A stretch of DNA of 40,000 nucleotides from Vibrio porteresiae DSM 19223 (GCF_024347055.1 NZ_AP024895.1:3405607-3445606), one strand, 5' to 3'; shown: positions 1,005 to 23,392, numbered from the stretch's first letter. The notes: a model not told the origin generated them from the letters alone. Translations and numbers: made by a program.

Positions 1005-1724
1005 TTAGCTTAGCTTACCATCTGGGACAAAGACATAACCGAGTCCCCAAACCGTCTGAATATATCGCGGTTTACTTGGGTCAACTTCCAGCATTCTGCG
1101 TAGACGTGAAATTTGCACATCGATAGAACGTTCCATCGCTGAGTACTCACGACCACGGGCCATATTCATTAACTTATCACGGGATAACGGTTCACGGGCA
1201 TTGAGCACTAGTGCCTTTAATACAGCAAATTCACCCGAGGTCAGTGGCATGGCTTCATTACCACGGAACATTTCTCGTGTACCTAGGTTTAAGCGAAACT
1301 CGCCGAACTCAACCACAGACTCTTCAGCACTCGGTGCTCCCGGCGCTTCAACCACTTGGCGACGCAGTACCGCTTTAATACGCGCGAGCAATTCGCGAGG
1401 GTTAAATGGTTTAGGTAGGTAATCGTCCGCGCCGACTTCTAACCCCACAATGCGATCAATCTCGTCGCCTTTTGCCGTCAACATCAGAATTGGCAATGTG
1501 TTATTGGCGTTGCGTAGACGACGACAAATAGACAAACCGTCTTCGCCCGGTAGCATTAAGTCCAACACCATGAGATGAAAGGTTTCACGGGTCAACAGAC
1601 GATCCATCTGCTCACCATTTGCCACGCTACGTACCTGAAAACCTTGCTCAGAGAGATAACGTTCCAACAAAGCTCTTAGGCGTGCATCATCATCAACAAC
1701 CAGAATTTTATGATTTTCTTGCAT
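1005..1724 (-). CDS. ompR: Response regulator OmpR
   Basis: 'MQENHKILVVDDDARLRALLERYL' closely matches the E. coli OmpR N-terminus. A receiver domain and a winged-helix C-terminus ('YIQTVWGLGYVFVP') are present. I moved the start to the internal ATG at 1724, which has GAGGG 5 nt upstream; the track ORF starts 4 codons earlier. Confidence 0.95.
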   Translation of the reverse strand: MQENHKILVVDDDARLRALLERYLSEQGFQVRSVANGEQMDRLLTRETFHLMVLDLMLPGEDGLSICRRLRNANNTLPILMLTAKGDEIDRIVGLEVGADDYLPKPFNPRELLARIKAVLRRQVVEAPGAPSAEESVVEFGEFRLNLGTREMFRGNEAMPLTSGEFAVLKALVLNAREPLSRDKLMNMARGREYSAMERSIDVQISRLRRMLEVDPSKPRYIQTVWGLGYVFVPDGKLS

Positions 1725-1867
1725 GAAAGCCCTCACCGACTATCGACTTTACCCTGTTATACTTGGCTCACAAATGTAACACTGTGATCGAGACTTCGTA
1801 TAAAACAATTGTTAATGATTGTTTCCTTTGCAACAAACTTCACTTTTACAAGCCAAGCTTGGCAACC

Positions 1868-2209
1868 TTATCCTGCTTTTTGATACTCAATTTTGTTGAT
1901 GAACCATACTTTCTTGCCTGAAGGGGTTTCGACTTCGACTTCATCATCCACTTCGCGTTTTAGCAACGCACGCGCCATCGGCGAGTCGATAGAGATATAG
2001 TTTTTTACTTCACCATAGATCTCTTCTGGTCCAACAATCCGAAAACGCTTGGTTTCCCCTTCTTCGTTTTCAATTTCGACCCACGCGCCAAAAAAGACTT
2101 TGCCATCTTGCTGTGGTGAATAATCGACCACTTGAACTTCAGGGAGAAATTTACGTAAGAAGCGTACACGGCGATCAATTTGACGTAGTAAGCGCTTATT
2201 GTATTGATA
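1868..2209 (-). pseudogene. greB: 3' fragment of the disrupted resident greB (codon 50 to stop)
   Basis: The minus-strand frame reads YQYNKRLLRQIDRRVRFLRKFLPEVQVVDYSPQQDGKVFFGAWVEIENEEG...IEYQKAG*. This is collinear with E. coli GreB from 'ENAD|YQYNKK'. No start codon or N-terminal coiled-coil is attached. The reading frame breaks at 2209/2210. Confidence 0.9.
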
Positions 2210-2392
2210 TTAGTTCTACTCTTAAGACCGTACTAATAGGTGCAATACTACTTTTAAATATCTGATATAGACAGTTCTGATTTCAAAGTTCAGTCATTTG
2301 AATTAGTGAGAACCATCAACTATATACTAATAAGTATATTAAGGAATCCTTAATTTTTATGAAGGTAATGTCACTTAGTTATAGGAGTTAGT

Positions 2393-2542
2393 ATGTCAAA
2401 ATCAAAATTCTATCCTAGCTATCAAGAAGCATGTGAAGCTGCAAGAAAGTTGAAGATTAAGACGGCGAAGGAGTACAAAAATCTTTCAGGCAAGACTGAT
2501 CGCGACACCAACGATTCAACGTCACCGAAATCAAGTGAGTAA
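2393..2542 (+). CDS. 49-aa ORF carrying a partial copy of the repeat motif found in the 1325-aa recombinase
   Basis: The ORF is below the track threshold, so I translated it myself: MSKSKFYPSYQEACEAARKLKIKTAKEYKNLSGKTDRDTNDSTSPKSSE. AGGAG lies about 8 nt upstream. The stop is 2 nt before the next ATG (2545). 'FYPSYQEACEAARKL.I.TAKEY' parallels 'FYSTYAEASEAAIGLGIQSAPEY'. Confidence 0.4.
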   Translation: MSKSKFYPSYQEACEAARKLKIKTAKEYKNLSGKTDRDTNDSTSPKSSE

Positions 2543-2544
2543 GA

Positions 2545-3840
2545 ATGGCTTATACACTTAAAAGAAGAGTTTCTTATAAGGCTAGTGCGGCGTCTTTATC
2601 ACATAACCTTCCTGCCATCTTCACTAAGAGTGGCTTGCTGATTTCTCATTTGAGGTACTTATATTCTAACCGAGGTAAATCACCATCTTGGATGGAGAGA
2701 AATACCTTTGCGGTAGAGCTTCTTTTAAAGTTTATAGAGCGCCAAGTATCAAACTTCTCATCAGCTACAGAGTTGCTCAGAGCGTTTGTTGAAGCATTAC
2801 AGTTTGGAACAATTCAAGATGGGCAAGACAGCTCTGGGTTGTTCTGGTCGACTCGCAGAAATGAAGACGTAAATGTTCTTCTTCACCATATTACGGATTA
2901 TTGCGACTACCTCGATACAGTTTATGGAACTGACTTGCCCAAGCTAAATCCCTTAAGGAAAGCAACTCATGCAGAAGAGCGTTTGCAATGGTGTGCTTAC
3001 TACAGGAGGCACAGTCGTAGCTTTCTGAATCATTTAGCTAATCCATCCCGACAGCAATTCTCAGTTGTTAGAATGATTCGAGGGCCTGAGAGGCACCTAG
3101 TCGATATCGAAGCAGTATATCGCTTTCCAGAAAACCGAATTGAAGACTTACTGCTACATGGTTTTGTTTTTCCGTCAGGAGAACCGGATTATGCTAGCCA
3201 GTTGATTGTAATGTTGATGCATTTCGGTGGGTTGAGATTGTCGGAGTGTTTTCATATATATGTCCATGATGTGCATCTAGACCAGAAATCAGGCTCAGCT
3301 CTCATATCGGTTTTTCATCCTAGTGATGGACAGTCGCCAGATGAACGTTTCTGTAAACGAAATGAATACTTGGCTACCAAATACCGACTAAATCCAAGGA
3401 ATGAGTATTCGAGAAGCCATAGACTATATGCTGGCTGGAAAGGACCTTTGCTTACAAATCGCAACCTATCCTTTGATGTGATGTTTTATCCAGCTAGTAA
3501 AGCTGTTGAATTTACTCTGGTACTACAAAAGTACCTTGCGACTAAACCCTCTTCAGAATCTCCGTTCCTTTTTGTTAACTCAAAAGGAAATCCAGAGAGT
3601 AAAAAAAATTTCTATCAGAAGCATAATAGAGCCGTTCGTCGAATTGGACTAGAACCATCCAAGTCATTAGGGACAACCCCACACGCTCATCGCCATTCCT
3701 ACGGCTATAGATTAAGCCAAGGAGGTTTTTCTCAGCTAGAGATTCAAAAAGCGATGCACCATAAAAGCCCTGAGAGTTGCTTGGTTTATTTGAAACCTTC
3801 TGACGATGAGGTTCGTCGTCAAATGAGAGACACTCACTAA
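2545..3840 (+). CDS. Tyrosine recombinase/integrase (431 aa), first of the trio (TnpA-like)
   Basis: Tyrosine recombinase catalytic signatures are present: 'GGLRLSEC' (box I Arg), 'HAHRHSYGYRL' (H-x-x-R) and 'CLVYLKPS' (nucleophile Tyr). The stop overlaps the next start (TAATG at 3838-3842). Confidence 0.85.
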   Translation: MAYTLKRRVSYKASAASLSHNLPAIFTKSGLLISHLRYLYSNRGKSPSWMERNTFAVELLLKFIERQVSNFSSATELLRAFVEALQFGTIQDGQDSSGLFWSTRRNEDVNVLLHHITDYCDYLDTVYGTDLPKLNPLRKATHAEERLQWCAYYRRHSRSFLNHLANPSRQQFSVVRMIRGPERHLVDIEAVYRFPENRIEDLLLHGFVFPSGEPDYASQLIVMLMHFGGLRLSECFHIYVHDVHLDQKSGSALISVFHPSDGQSPDERFCKRNEYLATKYRLNPRNEYSRSHRLYAGWKGPLLTNRNLSFDVMFYPASKAVEFTLVLQKYLATKPSSESPFLFVNSKGNPESKKNFYQKHNRAVRRIGLEPSKSLGTTPHAHRHSYGYRLSQGGFSQLEIQKAMHHKSPESCLVYLKPSDDEVRRQMRDTH

Positions 3841-6800
3841 TGAAAAAGTTTTACGCAACTATAAACCAAGCAAGTAAAGCGGCGATAAGATTGGGCATTC
3901 AATCGGCACAAGAATATAAGCAGCGTTACAAAGAAGATGAGCATCTTCCCGCGAATCCAAATACGCTTTATGCCGCTGACTGGGTTGATTGGTTTAGTTT
4001 TCTGGATAAAGCGAAGCGGTCTTTATATTCGACATACGCAGAGGCCAGCGAAGCCGCGATAGGATTGGGCATTCAATCGGCGCCAGAATATCAGCAGTAT
4101 TACAAAAAAGATGAGCGTCTTCCCGCGAATCCAAATACGCTTTATGCCGCTAACTGGGTTGATTGGTTTAGTTTTCTGGATAAAGCGAAGCGGTCTTTCT
4201 ATTCGACATACGCAGAGGCCAGCGAAGCCGCGATAGGATTGGGCATTCAATCAGCGCCAGAATATCAGCAGTATTACAAAAAAGATGAGCGTCTTCCCGC
4301 GAGTCCAAATATGCTTTATGCCGCTGACTGGGTTGATTGGTTTAGTTTTCTGGATAAAGCGAAGCGGTCTTTATATTCGACATACGCAGAGGCCAGCGAA
4401 GCTGCGATAGGATTGGGCATTCAATCGTTCCTAGAATATAAGCAGCGTTACAAAGAAGATGAGCGTCTTCCCGCGAGTCCAAATACGCTTTATGCCGCTG
4501 ACTGGGTTGATTGGTTTAGTTTTCTGGATAAAGCGAAGCGGTCTTTATATTCGACATACGCAGAGGCCAGCGAAGCTGCGATAGGATTGGGCATTCAATC
4601 GTTACTAGAATATAAGCAGCGTTACAAAGAAGATGAGCGTCTTCCCGCGAGTCCAAATCAGGTTTATGCTGCTGACTGGGTTGATTGGTTTAGTTTTCTG
4701 GATAAAGATAAGCGGTCTTTCTATTCGACATACGCAGAGGCCAGCGAAGCAGCAATAGGGCTGGGTATTCAATCGTCGCCAGAATATAAGCAGCGTTACA
4801 AAGAAGATGAATGTCTTCCCGCAAATCCAAATCAAATTTATGCCGCTGACTGGGTTGATTGGTTTAGTTTTCTGGATAAAGCGCAGCGGTCTCTCTATTC
4901 GACATACGCAGAGGCAAGCGAAGCAGCGATAGGATTGGGCATTCAATCGTCCCATGAATATAAGCAGCGTTACAAAGAAGATGAACGTCTTCCCGCAAAT
5001 CCAAGTCAGGTTTATGCCGCTGACTGGGTTGATTGGATTCACTTCTTATTGCCCAGAGATATATCTAATCTAAAACAGTTCAAAACAGCATGTGCGATTC
5101 TAAGAATCAAAGACTCATCTCAATACAGAGTTACACAAAAGAACTATCCTCAATTACCCTCCAAGCCTGAAAAAAGAATACCTGACTGGAGCAATTGGTA
5201 TGACGCTCTCGATATACCAAGGCTTTATGGATATGACGAACTAGCAGCTTTGGTTCAAAGCAAAGGAGTTTGCAGCCTTGCAGAGTATGCGAAACTTCGA
5301 GCTGAATCCAATGATCCTAGAATGCCAGCAAAACCAGAAGAGAATTATCAAGGAAAGGGTTGGACTAACACCTTTGACTTCTGGGGAGTTAAACGACCGT
5401 ATCAAGTGAAATACTTTACTGATGAATGGTCTTTGTGGGCGGCGACGATAAAAGAGTTTCTCAAGTCTGCACGTGGCGGAGATACCAAAGCGAAAGACTT
5501 ATGTGAATTTGTTCGTGAATACATTGAGCCAAATGGTTTTGAAACATCCCCGTTGGAGTTTCTCACACGTGGCTCGACAAACATTCAACCAATGCTGAAT
5601 CTGTTTGAACAAGTTCCAGTGACACGAAGAAAAAAATGGGCGTTTTCAATCAATGAGTTCTTAGATTGGATTATCTCTAGTTATCTTATTTTGGAAGACA
5701 CAGAGACCGGAGAAATTACTCACATCAAGGACGCCAAAAACCCATTTAGTCACATTAATTTTAATGGAGAAACTGCGCCTCAAGTTGTCAATGAAACAGA
5801 TAAGATGGCTCTGCCTTATCAATATGTAAAAGCAGGGCGAGAGTGGATATTTCCATTAGACTCCGTAGAGAAAAAGCTAAATTATTGGGATTTAGCTCAT
5901 TTGCATCCTTTTTCATCAGACTGGGTGCAGATCAACGATAGCTCTCTCCTAGATAAAAACGACCCTGATTGCGTTTTCAAAGTTGAAAATGGGAAAACCT
6001 ATCTTTGGTTTCCAACATACTGGACCTATACGTACTCACTCATGCAACTCCCTGCAAGAGGGATGCAAATCGTCTATTGCGACTCTGGGGAGGCAGATCA
6101 AGAACTCGCCGACTTTAAGAACAATAAAGTCGTTTGGAAGAAAAATAGGACTATGTTAGCTGGCCTAACCAATCGTCAGAGCATGGTGAGTAAGTCAGGG
6201 CAAGGAGAGTTCGGTGTCCATTATACATCCAACAAAACTAAGTTTGATGGTTCAGGCTACACTATTCCCTTCATGCCCATAGAACTGGCATATTGGTTGG
6301 TAAAGCTTAGAAAGTGGCAACAGAAATATAATCCACTAAAGGAGCCAACGAAATGGCTTGATTGTGAGCGCACCAATCTAAACGAAGTTCAGCGTAAGCA
6401 AAAAGGGGCGAATTGCTTTTTATTCCGCGACTATCTAGAAAAAGAGCCAGGCACATTTAGTGGCAGACTAGCGACACGGCTTGCTGCTGCACTATATTTT
6501 TCTGCCAAGAATGATATTACAACGGCTACCTACAAAGGATTAAAATACAATCAATCGATGAAAGAATTGGAAAATAGTCAAACGATACCACTTTCACGCT
6601 TTAAATCCCCTTACACTCCACACTCAATGCGCGTCAGTTTGATCAATGCTTACGCGTATGAGTTCGGCATTCCTTTGGAAGTCATAATGAAATTGGTCGG
6701 CCATTCCAGCATCATAATGACCATCTACTATACCAAGAGCGATAAAACAGGCAGCAACTTACGAGAGAAAATGGAGTTGGGTGAAAAGGAGGCGATGAGC

Positions 6801-7817
6801 AAAGCAACGCAAACGCTCAAATCCTTTGTGGAACAGCAGAGAATTGAAGAAGTTAAATCACAGTTAGTAGGTTCATCTTTGGATCTACTAAGTTCACTCG
6901 ACAATGCTCGCCCGGCCTCTAGCTATTTATGGAAAGACTTTGGTATCTGCCCTGTAGGAGGTGCTTTTTGTTCAGAGGGGGGCATTCCTGTAGCTACCAA
7001 AGCCAACATATATCACTCTGTACCAGCAGGTTATTTGGGTGAGCAGAACTGTTTTCAGTGTCGATTTTTTATTACCGGCCCTGCTTTTTTGGTTGGACTT
7101 ACTGCCATATTCAATGAGATAAGCCTAGCCGTAAACACGCAATCTATACGTTACACTTCTCTTGAGCAGGAGATTGATAATATTGCAGAAAAGATAGATG
7201 TCATTGATCACCAACTTTACAAAATAAAAGCGGATAGCTCAGAGAAGTCTGCTCTGGAGTCTGATAGACGTAAGTTAGTTGGACAACGTATGCACTTGAA
7301 CTCGGCAATTGAAACACGAGCGAAGAAGCTAGATTTGTACCTTTCAGACATGAACGCAATTCACCGACATATACATAATTGTCAAACTCTTATGCGTAAC
7401 CCTAAAGAAAACACGGAGAATCACTATCAGCTTATTGTTCCGCATGAATTCACATTAGGTGTAGAGTTGGATGAAGTAAGCAATTTTCATCAACTATCAG
7501 AAGTGTGTTCGAATGCAGAGCTGTACCACAGCTGTAGCGACGACTTAGCGGTAACAAGACGCTCCCAAATGATCGACAAAATGATGGTCGAAAACGGTAT
7601 TCAGCCGCAACTTTTTTTACTGTCAGAAGCAGAGCAACTCTTAGTGGGGAACCAGTTAACAGAGTTGATGCTGGCAAGGTTGAAAGGCTGGGAGAACGTC
7701 GACCGTCTTATGGATGGGAGTTTGACTTTAAAGGACCTATCGATAGATAACAATTTTGATGAAAAGACTATTCGAGAATTGTTTGAGAAGTCGAAACCAC
7801 TAAAAAGGATCGGTTAG
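3840..7817 (+). CDS. Giant tyrosine recombinase (1325 aa) with N-terminal 58-aa repeat array, a Cys-rich segment and a coiled-coil C-terminus (TnpB-like)
   Basis: 'YTPHSMRVSLINAY' (H-x-x-R) and 'VGHSSIIMTIYYTKSD' (His and Tyr) indicate a tyrosine recombinase core at about aa 910-965. A Cys cluster follows: 'FGICPVGGAFCSEGG...EQNCFQCRFF'. There are seven near-identical N-terminal repeats and two degenerate ones. Confidence 0.85.
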   Translation: MKKFYATINQASKAAIRLGIQSAQEYKQRYKEDEHLPANPNTLYAADWVDWFSFLDKAKRSLYSTYAEASEAAIGLGIQSAPEYQQYYKKDERLPANPNTLYAANWVDWFSFLDKAKRSFYSTYAEASEAAIGLGIQSAPEYQQYYKKDERLPASPNMLYAADWVDWFSFLDKAKRSLYSTYAEASEAAIGLGIQSFLEYKQRYKEDERLPASPNTLYAADWVDWFSFLDKAKRSLYSTYAEASEAAIGLGIQSLLEYKQRYKEDERLPASPNQVYAADWVDWFSFLDKDKRSFYSTYAEASEAAIGLGIQSSPEYKQRYKEDECLPANPNQIYAADWVDWFSFLDKAQRSLYSTYAEASEAAIGLGIQSSHEYKQRYKEDERLPANPSQVYAADWVDWIHFLLPRDISNLKQFKTACAILRIKDSSQYRVTQKNYPQLPSKPEKRIPDWSNWYDALDIPRLYGYDELAALVQSKGVCSLAEYAKLRAESNDPRMPAKPEENYQGKGWTNTFDFWGVKRPYQVKYFTDEWSLWAATIKEFLKSARGGDTKAKDLCEFVREYIEPNGFETSPLEFLTRGSTNIQPMLNLFEQVPVTRRKKWAFSINEFLDWIISSYLILEDTETGEITHIKDAKNPFSHINFNGETAPQVVNETDKMALPYQYVKAGREWIFPLDSVEKKLNYWDLAHLHPFSSDWVQINDSSLLDKNDPDCVFKVENGKTYLWFPTYWTYTYSLMQLPARGMQIVYCDSGEADQELADFKNNKVVWKKNRTMLAGLTNRQSMVSKSGQGEFGVHYTSNKTKFDGSGYTIPFMPIELAYWLVKLRKWQQKYNPLKEPTKWLDCERTNLNEVQRKQKGANCFLFRDYLEKEPGTFSGRLATRLAAALYFSAKNDITTATYKGLKYNQSMKELENSQTIPLSRFKSPYTPHSMRVSLINAYAYEFGIPLEVIMKLVGHSSIIMTIYYTKSDKTGSNLREKMELGEKEAMSKATQTLKSFVEQQRIEEVKSQLVGSSLDLLSSLDNARPASSYLWKDFGICPVGGAFCSEGGIPVATKANIYHSVPAGYLGEQNCFQCRFFITGPAFLVGLTAIFNEISLAVNTQSIRYTSLEQEIDNIAEKIDVIDHQLYKIKADSSEKSALESDRRKLVGQRMHLNSAIETRAKKLDLYLSDMNAIHRHIHNCQTLMRNPKENTENHYQLIVPHEFTLGVELDEVSNFHQLSEVCSNAELYHSCSDDLAVTRRSQMIDKMMVENGIQPQLFLLSEAEQLLVGNQLTELMLARLKGWENVDRLMDGSLTLKDLSIDNNFDEKTIRELFEKSKPLKRIG
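3849..5040 (+). repeat. Seven tandem 174-bp (58-aa) in-frame coding repeats
   Basis: The period was measured from recurring 'ctttatattcgacatacgcagaggccagcgaagc' at 4021, 4195, 4369 and onward. The unit is (F/L)YSTYAEASEAAIGLGIQS.(P/L)EY(K/Q)Q(R/Y)YK(E/K)DERLPA(N/S)PN..YAA(D/N)WVDWFSFLDKAKRS. The copies are very similar at the DNA level. Confidence 0.95.
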
Positions 7818-7818
7818 C

Positions 7819-8442
7819 ATGTCAACAATTACTCCTGATCAAGTTCTGAATCAACTAAAAAAGAAAGCCTCACCTCGAGTACAAAACTCACTAGAGGCAG
7901 TGTTCACCATATGCAAGGAACAACAAGAACGTGGATTGAATGACTTTAGCTATTCCACGATAGCCCGCCTTGGAAAAGGGCGAGGAGTTCCTGCGGCACA
8001 AAGTATCCGAAACAAAACCGGTGAATCGTACCGAACCTTAATTGAAAGCTTCAACTCTTCAACAAAAGACCAACCAAAGCCAGCACGAAACACCTCAAAA
8101 GGTAAGATGCACGCTTGGATAGATGAATTAGAAGACCCAGTAGTTAAACTTCAAGCCAACATTCTCTATGCGCAAAAAAAAGAAGCAGAACGACTACTTA
8201 ATGAAATAGTGCCAATCAACCAGGTCATTGAAGTGTTCGATAACGTCGATGTCTCTGTTGCGTCGATTAAGCTCACTGAGCTGGAAAGAAGCGCATTGGA
8301 GTACCTCATTTCTAGTGAGTTTTTACGTAGACATCAATTGGAGGTTGGAAAAAATGGCAGTATAGTTTCGAGTGATACTCAAAAGTCTTTTTTCCGTGTT
8401 GCAACCATCGATGCAATCAAAAAGGCGCTAAAAAACTTATAG
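7819..8442 (+). CDS. 207-aa recombinase-operon accessory protein (TnpC-like position)
   Basis: It starts 2 nt after the stop of the 1325-aa gene and has no catalytic motif I can see. Position and size fit the third gene of Tn554-type trios. From memory, RefSeq names similar triplets 'gamma-mobile-trio' GmtX/Y/Z; this is unverified. Confidence 0.55.
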   Translation: MSTITPDQVLNQLKKKASPRVQNSLEAVFTICKEQQERGLNDFSYSTIARLGKGRGVPAAQSIRNKTGESYRTLIESFNSSTKDQPKPARNTSKGKMHAWIDELEDPVVKLQANILYAQKKEAERLLNEIVPINQVIEVFDNVDVSVASIKLTELERSALEYLISSEFLRRHQLEVGKNGSIVSSDTQKSFFRVATIDAIKKALKNL

Positions 8443-8460
8443 ATAACTTGGACTGTAGAA

Positions 8461-8937
8461 GTGAAAACAAAACTAATCACCAGAGAAGGTTACAACAAAC
8501 TGAAAGCTGAACATGACCACTTATGGAATGAAAAACGACCTGAAATTACTAAAATTGTAACTTGGGCTGCAAGCTTAGGTGACCGCTCTGAGAATGCTGA
8601 TTACACCTTCAATAAGCGTTTACTTCGCCAGATAGATAGGCGAGTCCGGTTTCTAAGAAAGTTTTTACCTGAAGTAACCGTTGTTGATTACTCTCCTCAA
8701 CAAGAAGGTAAAGTGTTTTTCGGAGCCTGGGTCGAAATTGAAAATGAATCCGGTGATGTGATGAAATTTCGTATTGTTGGTCCAGAAGAAATCTATGGGG
8801 GCGCTAAAAATTATATATCTATTGATTCCCCAATGGCGCGAGCGCTCTTGAAGAAAGAAGTTGATGACGAGTTTACCGTTCAGACTCCTGATGGGGATAA
8901 AGAATGGTTTATCAACTCAATTACATACGAAAAATAA
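8461..8937 (+). CDS. greB: Complete island-borne transcript cleavage factor GreB (158 aa, GTG start)
   Basis: It is full-length and collinear with E. coli GreB: 'TREGYNKLKAEHDHLWNEKRPEITKIVTWAASLGDRSENADY...DYSPQQEGKVFFGAWVEIEN...ISIDSPMARALLKKEV'. It lies 18 nt downstream of the trio, on the same strand. It differs from the resident greB at many synonymous sites. Confidence 0.9.
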   Translation: MKTKLITREGYNKLKAEHDHLWNEKRPEITKIVTWAASLGDRSENADYTFNKRLLRQIDRRVRFLRKFLPEVTVVDYSPQQEGKVFFGAWVEIENESGDVMKFRIVGPEEIYGGAKNYISIDSPMARALLKKEVDDEFTVQTPDGDKEWFINSITYEK

Positions 8938-8996
8938 ACTTGATTGGTTAATCTCGAATACAATCCAAAGTGCTGAAATAGAGCTGTTTATTGCTA

Positions 8997-16972: not shown

Positions 16973-17344
16973 ATGGAGTGTGTCTTAAAATCGCCTAAGA
17001 TTAGGTTGGCTGTGACATTATTTCTCACGATTGTGATAGGAGTTTTTTCTAGCTTATTTGCTACAGAAATAACACCAAATGGGATTGTTGAATGGAATAG
17101 AACATTTAAGACGTATTCTTTTTGGATATTGATAATATTAAGTATCATTTGGTTATGGATACATATTAATTTGATGGAGTATGATAATAGTATATTGGCT
17201 TTTTCTGATGATGAATATTGTAAGGCTTACATGAGAAAAGCTCAGCTTGAAGCATATGTATTAAATATTAAAGAAAATCCCAAAGAAGTAAATACTATGG
17301 AGTTGAATGAATTTAAATCAAAGTTGGAAGGATATAAAAAATGA
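16973..17344 (+). CDS. Two-TM membrane protein with a C-terminal amphipathic helix (123 aa), first gene of the AT-rich operon
   Basis: AGGAG lies about 12 nt upstream. The TM helices are 'LAVTLFLTIVIGVFSSLFA' and 'YSFWILIILSIIWLWIHI'. The stop overlaps the next start (ATGA at 17341-17344). Confidence 0.6.
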   Translation: MECVLKSPKIRLAVTLFLTIVIGVFSSLFATEITPNGIVEWNRTFKTYSFWILIILSIIWLWIHINLMEYDNSILAFSDDEYCKAYMRKAQLEAYVLNIKENPKEVNTMELNEFKSKLEGYKK

Positions 17345-17607
17345 GTGTTTTGGTTTCCAGTAAATTTGCCGATGAGTTACGTGGTTATAAACTAGATTCG
17401 CAAGTTTCTGAAATTTTCAGTTTATTAGAAAACATGGATTATAATAGTCCTTCGCAAATGCATAACGTAAAGATTATAGACGGTGAAAAACAGTCAATAT
17501 ATGTTTTAAAACATAAAAACTGGAGGGTTTTCTTTACTAAACAAGAAAATGACATTGTATTATTAAGCATCACAGATAGTAAAGTGATAAGACATTTCAA
17601 TGGATAA
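17341..17607 (+). CDS. Small RelE/ParE-fold-like protein (88 aa)
   Basis: 'IYVLKHKNWRVFFTKQENDIVLLSITD' resembles the RelE/ParE core pattern (l)YrlRvGdyRviY.i.d..i.il.i. It is preceded by a helical segment. It is translationally coupled to the upstream membrane protein rather than to a soluble antitoxin. Confidence 0.45.
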   Translation: MSVLVSSKFADELRGYKLDSQVSEIFSLLENMDYNSPSQMHNVKIIDGEKQSIYVLKHKNWRVFFTKQENDIVLLSITDSKVIRHFNG

Positions 17608-17713
17608 ATATAGTATTCTTGGTTTTAAGTTACTTAATTATTGCAATGTTGGTATTTATGCACCATTGAATTATACGTGATAGGGAACATCCTTGAATGG
17701 AGTAGCATTGAAT

Positions 17714-18127
17714 ATGGAAAATAAAAAAGTAAAATGGCTGATTTACACTGTTCTAGTGGGGCTGATTCCTATCCTATCAAGGATATTTGTCTGGAGTGTC
17801 ACTGAGGTTGGGGTAGTCAGTTTAATAATGCCAGCAGACTTTATTGCTTTTGGTTTAATTTTACATATTTCTAATATCAATGAAATTGAACATCTAACAG
17901 ATGATGAAAAATCGTGGAAAACTATTCAAAATGGAACCTCTATAGCCTTCATTGCTTTTTATAGCGTTTTATTTTCATTGATAATGATAAGTGAGAGTAT
18001 TCCAAACTTGATAGACATGGGAGCAATCAAATTTTGCACTATAGGTTTATCTGTGGTCTCTTTTTTAATTAGTTTTTCTGTATTCCATAGAATTTCGAAA
18101 ATTGCAGCTAATGAGGTAACAGTATAA
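17714..18127 (+). CDS. Four-TM membrane protein (about 138 aa)
   Basis: The helices are 'WLIYTVLVGLIPILSRIFVW', 'VVSLIMPADFIAFGLILHI', 'SIAFIAFYSVLFSLIMI' and 'FCTIGLSVVSFLISFSVF'. The ATG at 17714 has GGAG 11 nt upstream; the track starts at a TTG at 17693. Confidence 0.6.
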   Translation: MENKKVKWLIYTVLVGLIPILSRIFVWSVTEVGVVSLIMPADFIAFGLILHISNINEIEHLTDDEKSWKTIQNGTSIAFIAFYSVLFSLIMISESIPNLIDMGAIKFCTIGLSVVSFLISFSVFHRISKIAANEVTV

Positions 18128-18258
18128 TGGTTACTACAATTATAATTGCATTAACTTTGGTTATGGTCTTTGTTGGTATTTCCACTGTTGTCTGGTCAAT
18201 AATTAATACAAGAAATAAATTTTACGAAGAATACAAGGCAAGGAATAAAAATAAATGA
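18127..18258 (+). CDS. 43-aa single-TM peptide
   Basis: The ORF is below the track threshold, so I translated it myself: MVTTIIIALTLVMVFVGISTVVWSIINTRNKFYEEYKARNKNK. Its start overlaps the upstream stop (TAATG). Its stop overlaps the downstream start (ATGA at 18255-18258). This double coupling argues that it is translated. Confidence 0.5.
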   Translation: MVTTIIIALTLVMVFVGISTVVWSIINTRNKFYEEYKARNKNK

Positions 18259-19196
18259 TAAAGAATTTTATATACTTAGACGAAGATAAAATGTATTCAT
18301 TATCATCTCAAATATTTGAAGGGATAACTGAATATGTTTTAAATGAAAGCTCTTCAGATAATCAAGAAAGTGAGACTCAAAAAGGCCCAGTAGGAAGTGG
18401 TAAGGTTTTAGCTGATGTAATTATTTCAAGTAGTAAGGCAACTGAGAAAAAGTTTTTTCATGACTACTCATTTACATTATTTGAAAATCATCTAATGGAG
18501 CAAGGCCGGGTTTTAGATCTAACAAGTGCAACACTTTCTTTAGAAGATCTTAAAGCATCCATTACTGACTTTTCTTTTATAAAAACAAAAGCTAAGTCAA
18601 CATTTAATGATGTGAATAAAATAACTGAGTTATTTTCCGAGTTTAATACGATTGGTGAAGCACTAGCACATATGGGAGCATTTTCCCGAATTAACGAACT
18701 AACTTCCGAGCTTGCATTGTTGAAGAAGCAAACACCAGATAGGAATAAAAGATCCCAACTCGAAGCTGAGTATAAGAAACTAACTAACCTCAAAGAATTA
18801 GCTAAAGCTGGCAGCCTTTATCAAGATCAAAAGTTTTTAGATAACTTAAGTTTATTAACTAAATATGGTTTTTCGGATCAATTTGAAATAACGCAACCTA
18901 TCGGCGAGGCACTTTTTACTTCATGTTTAAAACGTGATTTTCTGAGGGAGAGTGAGGATATATTAGTTAAAAAATATTCTCGAAAAACTGAAAAGAAAGT
19001 TGTTATCTTCGGAATAATATCTCAAGCATTTTCAGGTAATGAAATGGAATTAGATGAAAAAGGTAAAGATTATTCAAACATGAAGGCTGCACTGTTAAAC
19101 CTTGTCGATCATTTAACTAACATTGAACATTCTATTTCCGGAAAGCAAGAAAATGAAGTCGTCATTGATCCCATAGCCGTCTACTTTGAAGTGTAA
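18255..19196 (+). CDS. 313-aa soluble protein of unknown function, last gene of the AT-rich operon
   Basis: It is a long ORF in about 30% GC DNA with no TM segment. The N-terminus is 'MIKNFIYLDEDKMYSLSSQIFEGI' and the middle is coiled-coil-like ('LTSELALLKKQTPDRNKRSQLEAEYKKLTNLKELAK'). I recognise no catalytic motif. Confidence 0.7.
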   Translation: MIKNFIYLDEDKMYSLSSQIFEGITEYVLNESSSDNQESETQKGPVGSGKVLADVIISSSKATEKKFFHDYSFTLFENHLMEQGRVLDLTSATLSLEDLKASITDFSFIKTKAKSTFNDVNKITELFSEFNTIGEALAHMGAFSRINELTSELALLKKQTPDRNKRSQLEAEYKKLTNLKELAKAGSLYQDQKFLDNLSLLTKYGFSDQFEITQPIGEALFTSCLKRDFLRESEDILVKKYSRKTEKKVVIFGIISQAFSGNEMELDEKGKDYSNMKAALLNLVDHLTNIEHSISGKQENEVVIDPIAVYFEV

Positions 19197-19267
19197 TGCC
19201 TATAACAACCGATCAATGTATCAGCATACTTTTCCTAACCTGACAGAAACTCTTTAATGCGATTGTT

Positions 19268-19291
19268 CTAAACGGTTTCTGTCCATTTCCG
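19268..19291 (+). repeat. Cassette-boundary repeat, copy C (core only)
   Basis: 'ctaaacggtttctgtccatttccg' shares the core AAACG(n)GTTTCTGTCCAyTTyCG with copy B. Confidence 0.55.
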
Positions 19292-19379
19292 AGTTAAATT
19301 ATGGATTTTCTGCCTGTGATCACCAAGCGATTCTGTCGTACCTTGGCCGTGGTTAATTGTGTTTTGTTTAAGTGAAAAT

Positions 19380-19417
19380 AGTACATATGAATAGTATACA
19401 TACTATTCATATGTACT
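19380..19417. repeat. 38-bp perfect palindrome about 55 bp inside the island right end
   Basis: AGTACATATGAATAGTAT-AC-ATACTATTCATATGTACT has 18-bp arms that are exact reverse complements. Confidence 0.9.
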
Positions 19418-19453
19418 GTTTAATTAGTTGATTAGGTATATTTAGTATGTTTT

Positions 19454-19618
19454 TTATACTTCTAAAGCCATATCTGCATTTTCAGAGCGATCTCCTAGAC
19501 TGGCCGCCCAAGTCACTATTTTGGTGACTTCAGGACGCTGCTCATTCCACAGGTAATCGTGTTCTTCTTTGAGTTTATTGTAGCCCTCACGGGTGATCAG
19601 TTTGGTTTTCACTGACAT
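19454..19618 (-). pseudogene. greB: 5' fragment of the disrupted resident greB (codons 1-49 fused to 5 island-derived codons)
   Basis: The minus strand reads MSVKTKLITREGYNKLKEEHDYLWNEQRPEVTKIVTWAASLGDRSENAD, then MALEV* read from island DNA. The sub-threshold ORF was translated by me. Confidence 0.9.
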
Positions 19619-19680
19619 CTCTCACTGCTCACTGGAAATATAGAGCGACGTTATCGCTTTTAGTCTCAATTTTCTAGTGG

Positions 19681-20775
19681 TTAGGTCAGGCATAACTCTT
19701 CAAAACGTGGGCTGCACACCACTTGGTTACGGCCACCGTGTTTGGCGCAGTAAAGGTTATTGTCAGCAATATCGAGCCGCTGAACAAAGGAGCTTCCCTC
19801 TTCACTGTAACAGATACCAATACTGGTCGTGATTTGGCTGCCTTCATGACAAGTCAAACGACTGATAGCACGTCGCAAACGTTCGGCAAGCTGCCATACC
19901 TGCGCTGGACGAGCATCGAGGGTAACCACCAAAAATTCTTCGCCACCCCAGCGCCCCACGACATCATGGTCAGCCGTCAGCGATTTTAACGTGTGGGCAA
20001 AGTCCACCAGCACTTGGTCACCCGCTGAATGTCCATATTGATCATTAATCCGTTTAAAGTGGTCAATATCAAGCATCAAAATAGCGTAACGGCTCGAATC
20101 GATACTCTTTTCGTCATGCACATCACGCATTGCGCGCTCAATACCTCTTCTATTCAATAGGTTAGTCAGTGGGTCAACCTGAATATAGTACTCTAGTGCG
20201 ACAGCACGCGCCTGATGGCTATTGTTATCAACCCTTAATTTCAACGCCGTCCCTAGCAGCACAACATAGGCAAGATGGGCAATGCCAATATTCATCACCA
20301 CCCCCATCGTGTCCTCTAAAGAATAATGAGAACGCAAAGCGATAAAGTGCCCCACGATGGTCAACACAAAAACCACTATGGTAGTGGGCACCGCTTTTTT
20401 CACTTCTAAGAACAGATAGGCAATGACGTAGTTAAGGCCAAGCCACTGAGCCGCATTAGAAAACAGCCCATTAACACCGAGATGATGCCAAATACTGGTA
20501 CTGATAAGATAAGAAGAAACAACGACATAAGCCATAAAGTGCAATGACTGAGGGTTAAACCACTGGGTATAGGTCAGCAGATAAATCACACCGAAGAGCA
20601 CTATGCAGATAGGATAAGCCCACGCATCAAAATGAACGATAATGCCGCTGGTTTCATCCACTGTCCAAATAGCCGCAAAACAAAATATCGCAAACATCAA
20701 GAGTCGTCTGAACAGCACTGGAGAAAGTGGTGAATAAGTCGTAATAGGCGAATCCAGATTTTCCATAGAGAGCAT
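19681..20775 (-). CDS. Membrane-anchored diguanylate cyclase (GGDEF domain)
   Basis: The N-terminal half is multi-TM. The C-terminal half contains 'LDIDHFKRINDQYGHSAGDQVL' and the active-site 'RWGGEEFLVV'. Confidence 0.85.
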   Translation of the reverse strand: MLSMENLDSPITTYSPLSPVLFRRLLMFAIFCFAAIWTVDETSGIIVHFDAWAYPICIVLFGVIYLLTYTQWFNPQSLHFMAYVVVSSYLISTSIWHHLGVNGLFSNAAQWLGLNYVIAYLFLEVKKAVPTTIVVFVLTIVGHFIALRSHYSLEDTMGVVMNIGIAHLAYVVLLGTALKLRVDNNSHQARAVALEYYIQVDPLTNLLNRRGIERAMRDVHDEKSIDSSRYAILMLDIDHFKRINDQYGHSAGDQVLVDFAHTLKSLTADHDVVGRWGGEEFLVVTLDARPAQVWQLAERLRRAISRLTCHEGSQITTSIGICYSEEGSSFVQRLDIADNNLYCAKHGGRNQVVCSPRFEELCLT

Positions 20776-21070
20776 CTCTGGTTAAAAAAGTAGCAATCAC
20801 ATTTCTAGGCGGCGCATTATACTGATATTCACGATGAATAACTCCGAACTTGTTGAAATAACACTCACTTTTGTTTTGGTGTCTCATAAATACGGCGCAG
20901 CTATTCATTGTTGAGACAAATACAACCCCACTGAATGTAAAAGCTTTGCAAGAGGTGATAAATCTGAGTTATTCAACACAAATTCCCCCTCAATCCCTTT
21001 TTAACCCTAGAAAAACAGGCTAAAAAGCCCCATACATACAACTTGAATTCCCTATCAAAGAGTTACACGG

Positions 21071-23392
21071 ATGAGCCAAGCTATCTGTAAATTGATTGCT
21101 CAAGAGCTACAAGTTCGCCCTGAGCAAGTTATTGCTGCTGTACAACTGATCGACGACGGCAACACGGTTCCTTTCATTGCTCGTTATCGTAAAGAGGTAA
21201 CGGGTGGCCTAGACGACACCCAATTGCGTACTTTGGACAGCCGTCTTTCCTATCTAAGAGAGCTCGATGATCGTCGCCAAACCATTCTTAAATCCATCTC
21301 AGACCAAGGTAAGTTAACCCCTGAGCTGGAAAAAGAGATTCTAGAAACCGACAGCAAAACCCGTCTAGAAGATCTCTATTTACCTTATAAACCTAAACGT
21401 CGCACCAAAGGCCAAATAGCCATTGAAGCGGGGTTGGAACCATTAGCCGACACGTTGTGGAATAATCCACAAACCGATCCTGAGCAAGAAGCGGCTAAGT
21501 TCTTTAATACTGAGCACAATATTCTAGATACCAAGGCAGCTCTCGATGGCGCGCGCGCTATCATCATGGAGCGCATTGCTGAAGATGCAAACCTTCTGGA
21601 AACCCTACGCCAATATCTCACCCGTAATGCTGAGCTGGTTTCAAAAGTGATTCCCGGTAAAGAACAAGAAGGCGAGAAATTCAAAGATTACTTTGAGCAA
21701 CGTGAGCAAATCGCCAAAGTACCCTCTCACCGTGCTTTAGCGATGCTACGTGGCCGTAATGAAGGCTTCTTAACCCTCACAATGAATGCCGATCCCGGTC
21801 AAGAAGAGTCGAGCCGCGAGTCATACTGTGAAAGCTTAATTGCCCAGCACTACAATATTCATCTCAACAACGCTCCCGCTGATAGCTGGCGCAAACAGAC
21901 CATCAGTTGGGCATGGCGCATTAAAGTCGCTATGCACATGGAAACTGAACTAATGAGCGCAATGAAAGAACGCGCCGAGATCGAAGCCATTGATGTGTTT
22001 GCCACCAACCTAAAAGATCTTTTGATGGCAGCACCTGCTGGTCCGAAAGCCACGCTGGGGCTTGACCCAGGTCTGCGTACGGGTTGTAAGGTCGCAGTGG
22101 TTGATGCCACTGGTAAAGTGCTGGCGACCGACACCATTTACCCTCATGCACCACACAAGAAATATGACCAAGCGATGCAATCTGTAGCGAAATTGATCAA
22201 ACAGTTTGATGTGGATTTGATTGCCATTGGTAATGGTACAGCTTCTCGCGAAACCGATGCCTTTGCGGCTGACCTTATCAAGCGTGCTGGTCTGAAAATT
22301 CAGAAAGTCACCGTGAGTGAAGCAGGCGCTTCCGTTTACTCCGCTTCCGAGTTGGCTGCGAAAGAATTTCCTAATATGGATGTGTCGCTGCGTGGCGCAG
22401 TTTCGATTGCTCGTCGTCTGCAAGACCCTCTAGCTGAGCTGGTAAAAATTGATCCTAAATCGATTGGAGTGGGCCAATACCAACACGATGTAAGTCAATC
22501 TTTGCTCTCTAAACGCCTTGATGCGGTCGTGGAAGACTGTGTAAACGCCGTGGGTGTTGACTTAAATACCGCCTCTCCAGCGCTATTAACACGCGTTGCG
22601 GGGCTTTCTACTACTCTGGCGCAAAACATTGTCGATTACCGCGATGAAAATGGTCGCTTCCAATCTCGTGCAGAATTGAAAAAAGTGGCACGTTTGGGGC
22701 CAAAAGCATTTGAACAGTGTGCTGGTTTCCTACGCATTATGGACGGTAAAAACCCGCTTGATGCCTCCGCAGTTCACCCTGAAGCTTATCCAGTAGTGAA
22801 GAACATTGCCGAGAAGAACCACAAAGAGCTACAAACTCTGATTGGTAATAGCGATTTTCTGCGCCAATTACGCGCTGTTGATTACACCGATGAGCACTTT
22901 GGTGTGCCAACCGTGACAGACATCATCAAAGAGTTGGACAAACCGGGTCGTGACCCTCGCCCAGAGTTCAAAACCGCCACGTTCGCTGATGGCGTGACTG
23001 AGATGAAAGACCTCGAAGTGGGAATGATCTTGGAAGGTGTGGTTTCAAACGTGGCAAACTTTGGTGCCTTTGTCGATATCGGCGTTCACCAAGATGGTCT
23101 AGTGCATATTTCAGCTCTGACCGATCGCTTCATCTCTGACCCACGTGAAGTGGTCAAAGCGGGCGATATCGTCAAAGTAAAAGTGATGGAAGTGGATGTG
23201 CAGCGTAAACGTATTGGCCTATCCATGCGCCTAACCGATGAGCCGGGACAAGATAATCGAGCATCAAGTCAAACTCGCTCAACAGCGCCTAAATCATCTG
23301 AGCAGCGTCAGAATAAACGCCACGACAACCATAGCGACAATGGTGCAATGAGCGGTGCTTTCGCCGCTGCCTTTGCTAAAGCCAAGCGCTAA
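21071..23392 (+). CDS. tex: Transcription accessory protein Tex (S1 RNA-binding domain protein)
   Basis: It is 773 aa. '[17 protein letters not shown]' is the Tex N-terminal signature, the middle is YqgF/HhH-like, and the C-terminal S1 domain reads '[31 protein letters not shown]'. Confidence 0.9.

Follow-up and report, generated by a model that had tools for sequence, protein, structure and literature searches.

The four-gene operon at positions 2393-8442 of the window (the whole 40,000-nt stretch of Vibrio porteresiae DSM 19223 that was analyzed, NZ_AP024895.1:3405607-3445606) is very probably the recombination module of a gamma-mobile-trio (GMT) island inserted between codons 49 and 50 of greB, with a circular-copy activity assigned by analogy and a strand-exchange chemistry that may be of the Tn554/SE type. 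The module is composed of gmtY, gmtZ, gmtX and a small leader ORF and, judged by sequence family, is an integration/excision module. The finding is genuine, yet it was already known: both Dataset S1 and Dataset S2 of Mahata et al. (bioRxiv 10.1101/2023.03.28.534373) include this very island. Dataset S2 gives the V. porteresiae island an intragenic greB site and a length of 17,265 bp, with no inverted repeat listed, and the published GmtY coordinates (3408151-3409446) correspond to positions 2545-3840 of the window.

Operon layout and the GMT proteins

All four ORFs are on the + strand (2393-2542, 2545-3840, 3840-7817 and 7819-8442; 49, 431, 1325 and 207 aa), with 2 nt separating the leader ORF from gmtY, a 1-nt overlap between gmtY and gmtZ (TAATG) and a 1-nt gap between gmtZ and gmtX (TAG-C-ATG). 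An earlier note on this DNA had described four coupled ORFs, and all four are present, tightly packed on the same strand; its first two junctions (2 nt and an overlapping TAATG) also stand, while the last, given there as 2 nt, is a single nucleotide. The genes form one operon, leader ORF first, which runs on into an island-borne greB beginning 18 nt past gmtX.

The name 'gamma-mobile-trio' (GmtX/Y/Z), given in the earlier note along with a proposal for HMM searches, was borne out by three NCBIfam equivalog models, all matched far above their curated cut-offs. GmtY scored 507.4 bits against NF040693 (cut-off 340; model positions 2-441 of 441), GmtZ 726.9 bits against NF047926 (cut-off 600; model positions 8-784 of 784, residues 523-1297) and GmtX 223.3 bits against NF040692 (cut-off 40), and tyrosine recombinase Pfam models were matched as well. 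All three proteins are identified by the GMT models, and the borders of the element coincide with the trio.

GmtY and GmtZ are tyrosine recombinases by both sequence and fold. GmtY (2545-3840, + strand; PF00589, E 2.3e-15) possesses the catalytic residues R231, H380-x-x-R383, H406 and Y415, as determined by alignment to XerA (4a8e), an alignment in which the catalytic Lys was not located. GmtZ (3840-7817, + strand; NF047926, PF13009 and PF14882) falls 0.9 bit short of the Pfam cut-off for PF00589 (26.2 bits vs 27.1), and its residues R740, K799, H928-x-x-R931, H955 and Y964 are invariant in an alignment of 37 homologues. On the evidence of alignment, an AlphaFold model and structure search, residues 523-964 of GmtZ (5406-6731, + strand) form its core-binding and catalytic domains; the core model matches XerH (VIA-align Z 12.3, rmsd 9.3, 275 residues) and also the whole two-domain IntI, Tn1549 Int and XerA at Z 10-12, with low model confidence near the catalytic Tyr and the Cys cluster.

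The N-terminal part of GmtZ is occupied by an INT_rpt array (3840-5405, + strand) of seven near-identical 58-aa units (aa 1-406) followed by two degenerate units to aa 522. The array was detected by TRF (3877-5036; period 174, 6.7 copies, 93% matches) and as seven stretches by Pfam, and it is modeled by AlphaFold with four short helices per unit at a pLDDT of 93, a fold for which searches of solved structures returned no match (structure search best Z 3.8; Foldseek E > 1). Downstream of the catalytic Tyr, four Cys residues (C1037-x6-C1044-x26-C1071-x2-C1074; 6948-7061, + strand) are invariant columns among the 37 homologues and probably form a zinc site, in a region where the single-chain model has a pLDDT < 50. 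These are followed by an antiparallel coiled-coil hairpin (aa 1081-1186; 7080-7397, + strand; helices 559-606 and 612-664 in model numbering), which matches the coiled-coil arms of seryl-tRNA synthetase, SMC and JetC at Z 10-11, and then by a helical C-terminal domain. The earlier reading of this protein from the DNA was accurate in its repeat array, its Cys cluster, its helical/coiled-coil tail (two long antiparallel helices plus the C-terminal domain in the model) and the R / H-x-x-R / Y signatures claimed for both large proteins, the residues of which align with XerA or are invariant. The protein that it called greatly enlarged is ordinary for its clade at 1325 aa: the lengths of homologues run from 918 up to 1838 aa, in steps of one 58-aa INT_rpt unit.

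GmtX (7819-8442, + strand) is a small accessory protein and probably binds DNA. There was no match to it among Pfam, PHROG or PDB sequences, and an StbA-like N-terminal DNA-binding domain has been described for GmtX, as has a requirement for gmtX (Mahata et al., bioRxiv 10.1101/2023.03.28.534373).

The leader ORF (2393-2542, + strand), annotated in Dataset S1 as a 49-aa hypothetical protein (Mahata et al., bioRxiv 10.1101/2023.03.28.534373), follows an AGGAG Shine-Dalgarno sequence and stops 2 nt before the gmtY start. Its 44% identity over 36 aa to the GmtZ repeat units marks it as what is left of an INT_rpt unit's N-terminal half. It is quite possible, if somewhat doubtful, that the ORF is not a gene and merely a chance open frame within such a decayed remnant, a reading consistent with the lack of any family match in NCBIfam and Pfam searches and with the wide variation in sequence and length (19-62 aa) among related islands. 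Against this, a small ORF sits at exactly that place in all five of the islands examined, its stop overlapping the gmtY start (ATGA) in related islands, and all of them have a Shine-Dalgarno-like sequence and stop at, or no more than 2 nt from, the gmtY start codon. Because a small ORF with these features is kept against the gmtY start, it may be the translation of the leader, rather than its product, that matters.

Island borders and the right-junction stretch

The island spans 17,262 bp (2210-19471) with the recombinase module at its left end, is present in the genome as one copy only, and splits the host greB between codons D49 and Y50. Its borders are base-exact, as the two flanks abut in the intact greB of three other Vibrio species (genomes G007, G012 and G009). 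The left flank holds the 3' fragment of the host gene (1868-2209, - strand; codon Y50 to stop), recognized by the Pfam GreA_GreB C-terminal domain (E 3.9e-25), and the right flank the 5' fragment (19472-19615, - strand; start to codon D49), recognized by translation and by alignment to naive sites. An intact greB of 158 aa with both GreA/GreB Pfam domains is carried by the island (8461-8937, + strand), and its product is identical to the reconstructed host GreB at 133 of 161 aligned positions; GMT islands that land inside a gene often carry a homologue of the gene they disrupt (bioRxiv 10.1101/2023.03.28.534373). The cargo includes RexA/RexB, a gop-beta-cII-like (beta/cII-like) module and an M78 peptidase. 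Nothing in the island looks decayed.

Both ends of the island are non-coding. The left end (2210-2392), 80-85% identical to the left ends of islands in G060, G005 and G245, begins with the terminus TTAGTTCTAC and includes ~150 nt conserved in related islands, with RTACTA at three places and a 7+7 inverted repeat. The right end (19197-19465) includes a perfect 18+18 palindrome (19380-19417) and a terminal block, TTAGTAT-N13-CTAA (19442-19465), that is conserved across nine islands. The motif TAGTAY occurs seven times in the 458 nt of the two ends vs 0.95 expected, a count reached by 2 of 20,000 shuffles. Comparison of the junctions with naive greB revealed no terminal inverted repeats and no target duplication, and the island joint and the target shared no sequence identity.

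The two junctions differ in kind. At the left, greB sequence ending in RTA runs straight into the invariant TTAGTTCTAC with no spacer in all six islands compared, the host bases abutting the terminus here being TTGATA (2204-2209). At the gmt-distal junction of nine greB-inserted islands, a non-conserved stretch separates the conserved terminus from greB, 6 nt long in seven of the nine; it is AGCCAT in V. porteresiae (19466-19471), which is neither greB sequence nor conserved between islands, and TCTCTA in the Shewanella island. Pairwise identity across these islands is 0.28 in the spacer, 0.69-0.71 in the right terminus and 0.79 in the greB flank. AGCCAT is a candidate footprint of the donor's flank, as in Tn554 and in SEs (strand-biased circularizing integrative elements), and TTGATA would then be the central 6 bp of the target that the next copy would carry away (Tn554/SE-type model, PMC10214605). 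TTGATG is the sole one of the nine 6-mers that looks like a left flank in greB (TTGATA), so on the footprint reading most donors must have been at sites other than greB. Alternatively, the variable 6-mer could lie within the element as a spacer under no constraint; the remaining unconstrained non-coding stretches of these islands cannot be aligned either.

Relationship to Tn554, SEs and GInts

The earlier note had drawn a parallel to the TnpA, TnpB and TnpC of Tn554, and as an analogy the parallel is sound, in layout and probably in mechanism; family membership did not follow. In both systems an ordinary tyrosine recombinase is accompanied by a large one and by a small protein that is required. 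The Staphylococcus transposon inserts site-specifically, its ends are asymmetric, it does not duplicate its target and 6-7 bp at its junction come from the donor site (PMC10214605), which compares with insertion here at a specific site, without terminal inverted repeats or target duplication and with a variable 6-7-nt stretch at one junction. That the trio should consist of enlarged TnpA/TnpB/TnpC homologues of a true Tn554 family member is nonetheless highly improbable. The NCBIfam and Pfam scans returned GMT-specific and generic Xer/integrase models alone, with no Tn554-specific match, the two being compared by description, and relatives of Tn554 have been reported from Staphylococcus and Enterococcus, a different phylum from the Gammaproteobacteria (PMC10214605). 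GmtZ possesses PF13009, the INT_rpt units, the four-Cys cluster and the coiled coil. TnpB is not known to have PF13009, an INT_rpt array, a four-Cys cluster or a coiled-coil tail.

It is just as improbable that the element is an SE or a GInt, despite several shared traits. SE-6283, SE-6945 and the GInts occur in the same hosts (Gammaproteobacteria, especially marine, including the Vibrionales), have translationally coupled core genes encoding two RHRY recombinases (one ordinary, one large) alongside a small accessory protein, and transfer replicatively, making a copy-out circle that leaves no empty site, with a 6-bp footprint adjoining the int-distal terminus. Further, the circular joint predicted for the V. 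porteresiae island, CTAA-N6-TTAG, has a 6-nt spacer flanked by a short inverted repeat, the feature by which SE ends are called (PMC10214605). Four core genes define the SEs and GInts, however, and one of these, located between the two integrases, encodes a recombinase-fold protein that is catalytically inactive (Tfp or GinC). Here nothing separates gmtY from gmtZ, which share 1 nt; the ORFs of 2393-8442 include no Tfp/GinC homologue and no further recombinase-like ORF, and the NCBIfam name for the trio is GMT. Neither SEs nor GInts are cited in the GMT preprint (bioRxiv 10.1101/2023.03.28.534373).

With the GMT assignment preferred, the island could still be a fixed remnant, no longer mobile, in which the recombinase genes merely happen to be open. 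The single copy in the genome and a greB site without an inverted repeat are in keeping with this, which we consider unlikely given that none of the four ORFs is broken and all catalytic residues are present, that both ends keep blocks conserved in the islands of eight other species, and that the 1.2-kb near-perfect in-frame repeat has neither collapsed nor suffered a frameshift. In contrast, decay is seen in a relative, G060, in which gmtZ is cut to 1089 aa, with a 532-aa ORF occurring twice downstream.

Proposed activity and place among GMT islands

The trio, described in the earlier note as mechanistically uncharacterised, has in fact been studied by Mahata et al., who showed circularization, site-specific insertion, replicative transfer and a need for all three genes. 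In VPaI-6, the prototype from Vibrio parahaemolyticus RIMD 2210633, gmtY, gmtZ and gmtX are each required for the circular form and for insertion, and transfer is replicative; a circular intermediate and site-specific replicative insertion have been shown for the VPaI-6 and 04.2548 islands only (bioRxiv 10.1101/2023.03.28.534373). By analogy with VPaI-6, GmtY, GmtZ and GmtX of V. porteresiae would together produce the island as a circular copy, and the circle would insert site-specifically at an empty greB while the donor copy stays in place, making the transfer replicative. Strand exchange may be of the Tn554/SE kind, with 6 bp of the donor's left flank traveling with the copy, since the ends are asymmetric and the 6 nt at the right junction lie outside both greB and the conserved terminus.

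The V. porteresiae island resembles the GMT islands, of which VPaI-6 is the prototype, in its site-specific insertion, in the placement of gmtY-gmtZ-gmtX at the 5' border, in its anti-phage cargo and in an intragenic insertion compensated by an island-borne homologue. It differs from VPaI-6 in having a leader ORF ahead of gmtY and a GmtZ of 1325 aa with 7+2 INT_rpt units, as opposed to 890 aa and none. The targets also differ, being an intergenic hairpin with a 10-nt spacer for VPaI-6, the published model for which stresses inverted repeats in the target (bioRxiv 10.1101/2023.03.28.534373), and a coding sequence here, with no exact inverted repeat ≥5 nt spanning the insertion point in the naive greB site. 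A naive-site inverted repeat of at least 5 nt accompanies 238 of 366 GMT islands and so is not obligatory (bioRxiv 10.1101/2023.03.28.534373).

Further greB islands in Datasets S1 and S2, from Pseudomonas aeruginosa, Acinetobacter seifertii, Photobacterium and Rheinheimera, are inserted at the same point, between GAAAAYGCNGAY and TAY, and have the same gene order with a replacement greB downstream. The GmtZ of A. seifertii (922 aa) has no Pfam-detectable INT_rpt unit and that of P. aeruginosa (1216 aa) has four, compared with seven plus two in V. porteresiae. Because greB-inserted islands differ in unit number, the array does not decide the target; the seven-plus-two INT_rpt units are an appendage of variable copy number and not what selects greB. 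To the published account of these islands, the present analysis adds the variable stretch at the right junction of nine greB-inserted islands, 6 nt in seven of them, and the observation that INT_rpt copy number does not track target choice.

The trio operon and its published family

As has been reported previously by Mahata et al. (bioRxiv 10.1101/2023.03.28.534373), Gamma-Mobile-Trio (GMT) islands are defined by a set of three genes, gmtY, gmtZ and gmtX, that marks the 5' border of the island. One such island, VPaI-6, circularises and integrates at a cognate site, the three genes are each required, transfer is replicative, and intragenic insertions often bring a homologue of the broken gene (10.1101/2023.03.28.534373). 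Dataset S1 of that study lists the Vibrio porteresiae DSM 19223 locus on NZ_AP024895.1, with GmtY at 3408151-3409446 (2545-3840 in the window), a 49-aa hypothetical protein 2 nt upstream of GmtY, a 1325-aa GmtZ whose domain coordinates agree with those here, and a 207-aa GmtX, while Dataset S2 gives an intragenic greB site and an island of 17,265 bp with no inverted repeat (10.1101/2023.03.28.534373). The roles of the individual proteins and the recognition of the target are left open by Mahata et al. (10.1101/2023.03.28.534373), whose text makes no mention of the INT_rpt repeat, the Staphylococcus transposon Tn554, integrative elements of the strand-biased circularizing type (SEs) or footprints, and a literature search found no later mechanistic paper on GMT. 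Both the operon family and this particular island are already published, as is the family's mobility, and the asymmetry of the island junctions is a modest, testable addition.

All three proteins scored above their NCBIfam equivalog cut-offs (GmtY, 507 bits against 340; GmtZ, 727 against 600, over residues 523-1297; GmtX, 223 against 40), so that the name gamma-mobile-trio, which the earlier note had given, proved correct. Pfam assigns Phage_integrase to GmtY, and Integrase_2 (PF13009) plus seven stretches of INT_rpt (PF14882) to GmtZ; a PDB sequence search with GmtX returned no meaningful match. Every feature open to testing places the element in the GMT family.

The operon lies on the forward strand and consists of a 49-aa leader ORF (2393-2542), gmtY (2545-3840, 431 aa), gmtZ (3840-7817, 1325 aa) and gmtX (7819-8442, 207 aa), with no terminator-like site of note between the four ORFs. 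The 2-nt gap between the leader and gmtY and the 1-nt TAATG overlap of gmtY and gmtZ are as the earlier note had described them; its third junction, given as 2 nt, is a single nucleotide (TAG-C-ATG). The leader reached no family model when scanned, and it resembles the N-terminal half of an INT_rpt unit (44% identity over 36 residues). A small ORF of 19-62 aa occupies the same position in four related islands, where the ORFs are differing INT_rpt-like remnants whose stop overlaps the gmtY start (ATGA). As far as these comparisons go, the position and coupling of the leader are conserved and its product is not, and the 49-aa ORF may act as a leader bringing ribosomes to gmtY.

GmtZ and its repeat array

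The structural features that had been read from the sequence, namely recombinase signatures in both large proteins and, in GmtZ, an N-terminal repeat array, a Cys cluster and a coiled-coil tail, were each borne out by alignments, tandem repeat detection (TRF) and AlphaFold models. In an alignment with archaeal XerA, residues R231, H380-x-x-R383, H406 and Y415 of GmtY coincide with the catalytic ones, and in GmtZ both the corresponding set (R740, K799, H928, R931, H955 and Y964) and the cysteines C1037, C1044, C1071 and C1074 are unchanged in 37 homologues that are 43-93% identical. The model of GmtZ 523-1325 (mean pLDDT 71.5) reaches ~80-94 over most of its first 420 residues and is poor around the catalytic Tyr and the Cys cluster. 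Its first 440 residues match whole two-domain tyrosine recombinases, among them XerH, with Z 12.3 (275 residues aligned at rmsd 9.3), and, with Z 10-12, IntI, Tn1549 Int and XerA, and residues 1081-1186 form an antiparallel coiled-coil hairpin.

The N-terminal array is encoded by an in-frame tandem repeat at 3877-5036 (period 174 nt, 6.7 copies, 93% matches). The genome, of 5.5 Mb in two contigs, has a single GmtZ and is otherwise free of INT_rpt. Among 522 GmtZ homologues at E below 1e-10, lengths range from about 918 to 1838 residues in 58-aa steps, and in close relatives from Vibrio and Shewanella the canonical units number two to twelve, with two degenerate ones after them in every case. 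The units are homogenised within one protein (mean identity 0.81 in the GmtZ of the window), and identity between lineages is about 0.45, although the catalytic cores are 91% identical. Differences within arrays cluster at positions 3-4, 23-24, 27, 39 and 41-43 of the 58-aa unit, while the hydrophobic core positions are fixed within homogenised arrays (3840-5405, GmtZ residues 1-522). In a model of four units (pLDDT 93), each unit has two 10-residue helices and two short helices. Comparison of this model with solved folds gave Foldseek E above 1 for all matches and a best Z of 3.8 in a wide VIA-align search, which means only that nothing was found and does not make the fold new.

A role for the array as the main target determinant was rejected. 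Pfam-detectable units number zero in the greB-inserted island of Acinetobacter seifertii (GmtZ of 922 aa), four in that of Pseudomonas aeruginosa (1216 aa) and seven in the window, and the number varies from two to twelve among close homologues. Since one and the same greB site is used whether the units number zero, four or seven, the array does not select the target. In the ESM Atlas, the clusters nearest to GmtZ residues 59-232 (4014-4535) that lack PF13009 are short INT_rpt-only bacterial and phage proteins, at scores of 0.89, short of the 0.9 level. PF26016 (ExoI_C) is present as well in 10-28% of the members of some clusters, a faint hint at a possible binding partner of the INT_rpt unit.

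An island within greB

The island is flanked on the left by a C-terminal GreA/GreB fragment on the reverse strand (1868-2209) and on the right by the matching greB N-terminal fragment (19472-19615). Since the two flanks abut to the base inside an intact greB in three other Vibrio species, the island spans 2210-19471 (17,262 bp), its insertion point falling between codons D49 and Y50. GC content falls across it from about 0.46 to 0.38-0.40. Beyond the trio, the cargo includes a helicase truncated to a stump with a ResIII domain (9832-10323), an M78 peptidase with a Beta protein and a convergent cII-like protein (11568-14808; PADLOC capP/RmrA-like, beta and cll matches), a RexA/RexB pair (15099-16590) and a DUF6414 protein.

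The island also carries its own intact greB (8461-8937, 158 aa), which begins 18 nt 3' of gmtX, and its product is identical to the reconstructed host GreB at 133 of 161 aligned positions. Around the insertion point the island copy differs at 10 of 42 nucleotides, many of them synonymous, and accepted greB sites in other genera vary as much as this site does, so these differences do not by themselves speak for immunity of the island copy to insertion. The published dataset file has greB 134 times, with examples from Pseudomonas, Acinetobacter and Photobacterium (10.1101/2023.03.28.534373).

Two side observations concern the surroundings of greB and a related island. The gene is co-directional with ompR in the window (1005-2209 and 19472-23392; loci L003-L013) and in the comparison genomes G007, G009 and G014, and divergent from ompR in most other sampled Vibrio species (e.g., G006 and G012), as it is in E. 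coli; inversion between resident and island-borne greB copies may account for the orientation. In a related greB-inserted island (L056, G060:C1:229500-243400), gmtZ ends at 1089 aa and a 532-aa ORF occurs twice, flanking gmtX on either side, which looks like a putative insertion sequence disrupting gmtZ.

Junction asymmetry and the mode of transposition

At the left, the outermost 150 nt of the island show 80-85% identity to the corresponding ends of islands in other Vibrio species; at the right, the islands have in common a palindromic block (AATAGTAC…TAGTAT…GTACTATT) and, at the terminus, the block TTAGTAT-N13-CTA(A/T). In the window the former is a perfect 18+18-nt palindrome with a 2-nt spacer (19380-19417), 54 nt inside the right end, whose arms hold TAGTAY motifs and whose outline (AATAGTAC…GTACTATT) recurs in eight other islands. 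Seven of the 22 TAGTAY hexamers in the 40-kb window fall in the two non-coding ends, 458 nt in all (expected, 0.95; seven reached in 2 of 20,000 shuffles), mostly in one orientation at the left end and in the other at the right end. Neither terminal inverted repeats nor a target duplication were found at the island, and no exact inverted repeat of at least 5 nt spans the insertion site. A classical homology-dependent att core was rejected, since at the crossover the inferred island joint and greB share no identity.

The two junctions differ in construction. On the left, greB (…RTA) is directly joined to the invariant terminus TTAGTTCTAC in all six islands compared. On the right, a stretch foreign to both greB and the terminus separates the conserved CTA(A/T) from greB. 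This stretch is exactly 6 nt in seven of nine islands, one of them from Shewanella, and 7 nt and 9 nt in the others; a pattern scan of genome contigs for the right junction gave six loci, of which the Shewanella locus was new. Pairwise identity is 0.28 among the 6-mers; the terminus beside them reaches 0.69-0.71 and the flank in greB 0.79. In the window the candidate footprint is AGCCAT (19466-19471).

In SEs and in Tn554, 6 bp taken from the donor's left flank are carried in the joint of the circle, with imperfect inverted repeats on both sides, and come to lie beside the int-distal terminus (PMC10214605). A strand-biased copy-out of this type would carry the 6 bp left of the donor copy in a joint of the form CTAA-N6-TTAG, predicted here as CTAA-TTGATA-TTAG, and would then leave them in the new copy as a footprint beside its gmt-distal terminus; in the window this footprint would be AGCCAT. 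Alternatively, the right-junction 6-mer may be merely an unconstrained spacer, and other unconstrained non-coding parts of the islands are also unalignable. An origin of the 6-mers as greB-derived coupling sequences was rejected, as none of the nine ends in RTA like the greB left flanks; only TTGATG resembles TTGATA, so direct transfer from greB to greB does not explain most of them. Partial support for the footprint comes from a second putative GMT lineage in the Vibrio genome G009, which has at least five copies of an 8.9-kb element with a PF13009 integrase gene, 98-99.98% identical. In these copies (L082-L086), an identical right terminus (…ACTGTATACTCC) is followed by GGGGGG (three copies), ATTTCG or TTTAGC and then by the flanks, three of which share TTGGGGAT; their left flanks are lost at contig ends, and the 6-mers may be of either donor or target origin. 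On balance, the chances are even that GMT islands, including that of the window, transpose by Tn554/SE-type strand-biased copy-out with a 6-bp footprint.

The GMT module has the same layout as Tn554 (TnpA/TnpB/TnpC), and a likeness in mechanism is possible. NCBIfam and Pfam scans of the trio proteins gave no Tn554-family link and membership of that family is unsupported; by analogy, that the module works like Tn554 is plausible, with the balance lying about midway. Identity with SEs or with GInts, other multi-recombinase islands of Gammaproteobacteria, was rejected, as both have a fourth core gene, Tfp/GinC, that the GMT module lacks.

Through GMT islands, anti-phage systems, T6SS effectors and resistance genes are disseminated among the Gammaproteobacteria. 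If the footprint reading is true, the analogy with Tn554 would be mechanistic, beyond layout, and GMT islands, SEs and Tn554 would together make up a single class by mechanism, of transposons that use two recombinases and need no homology.
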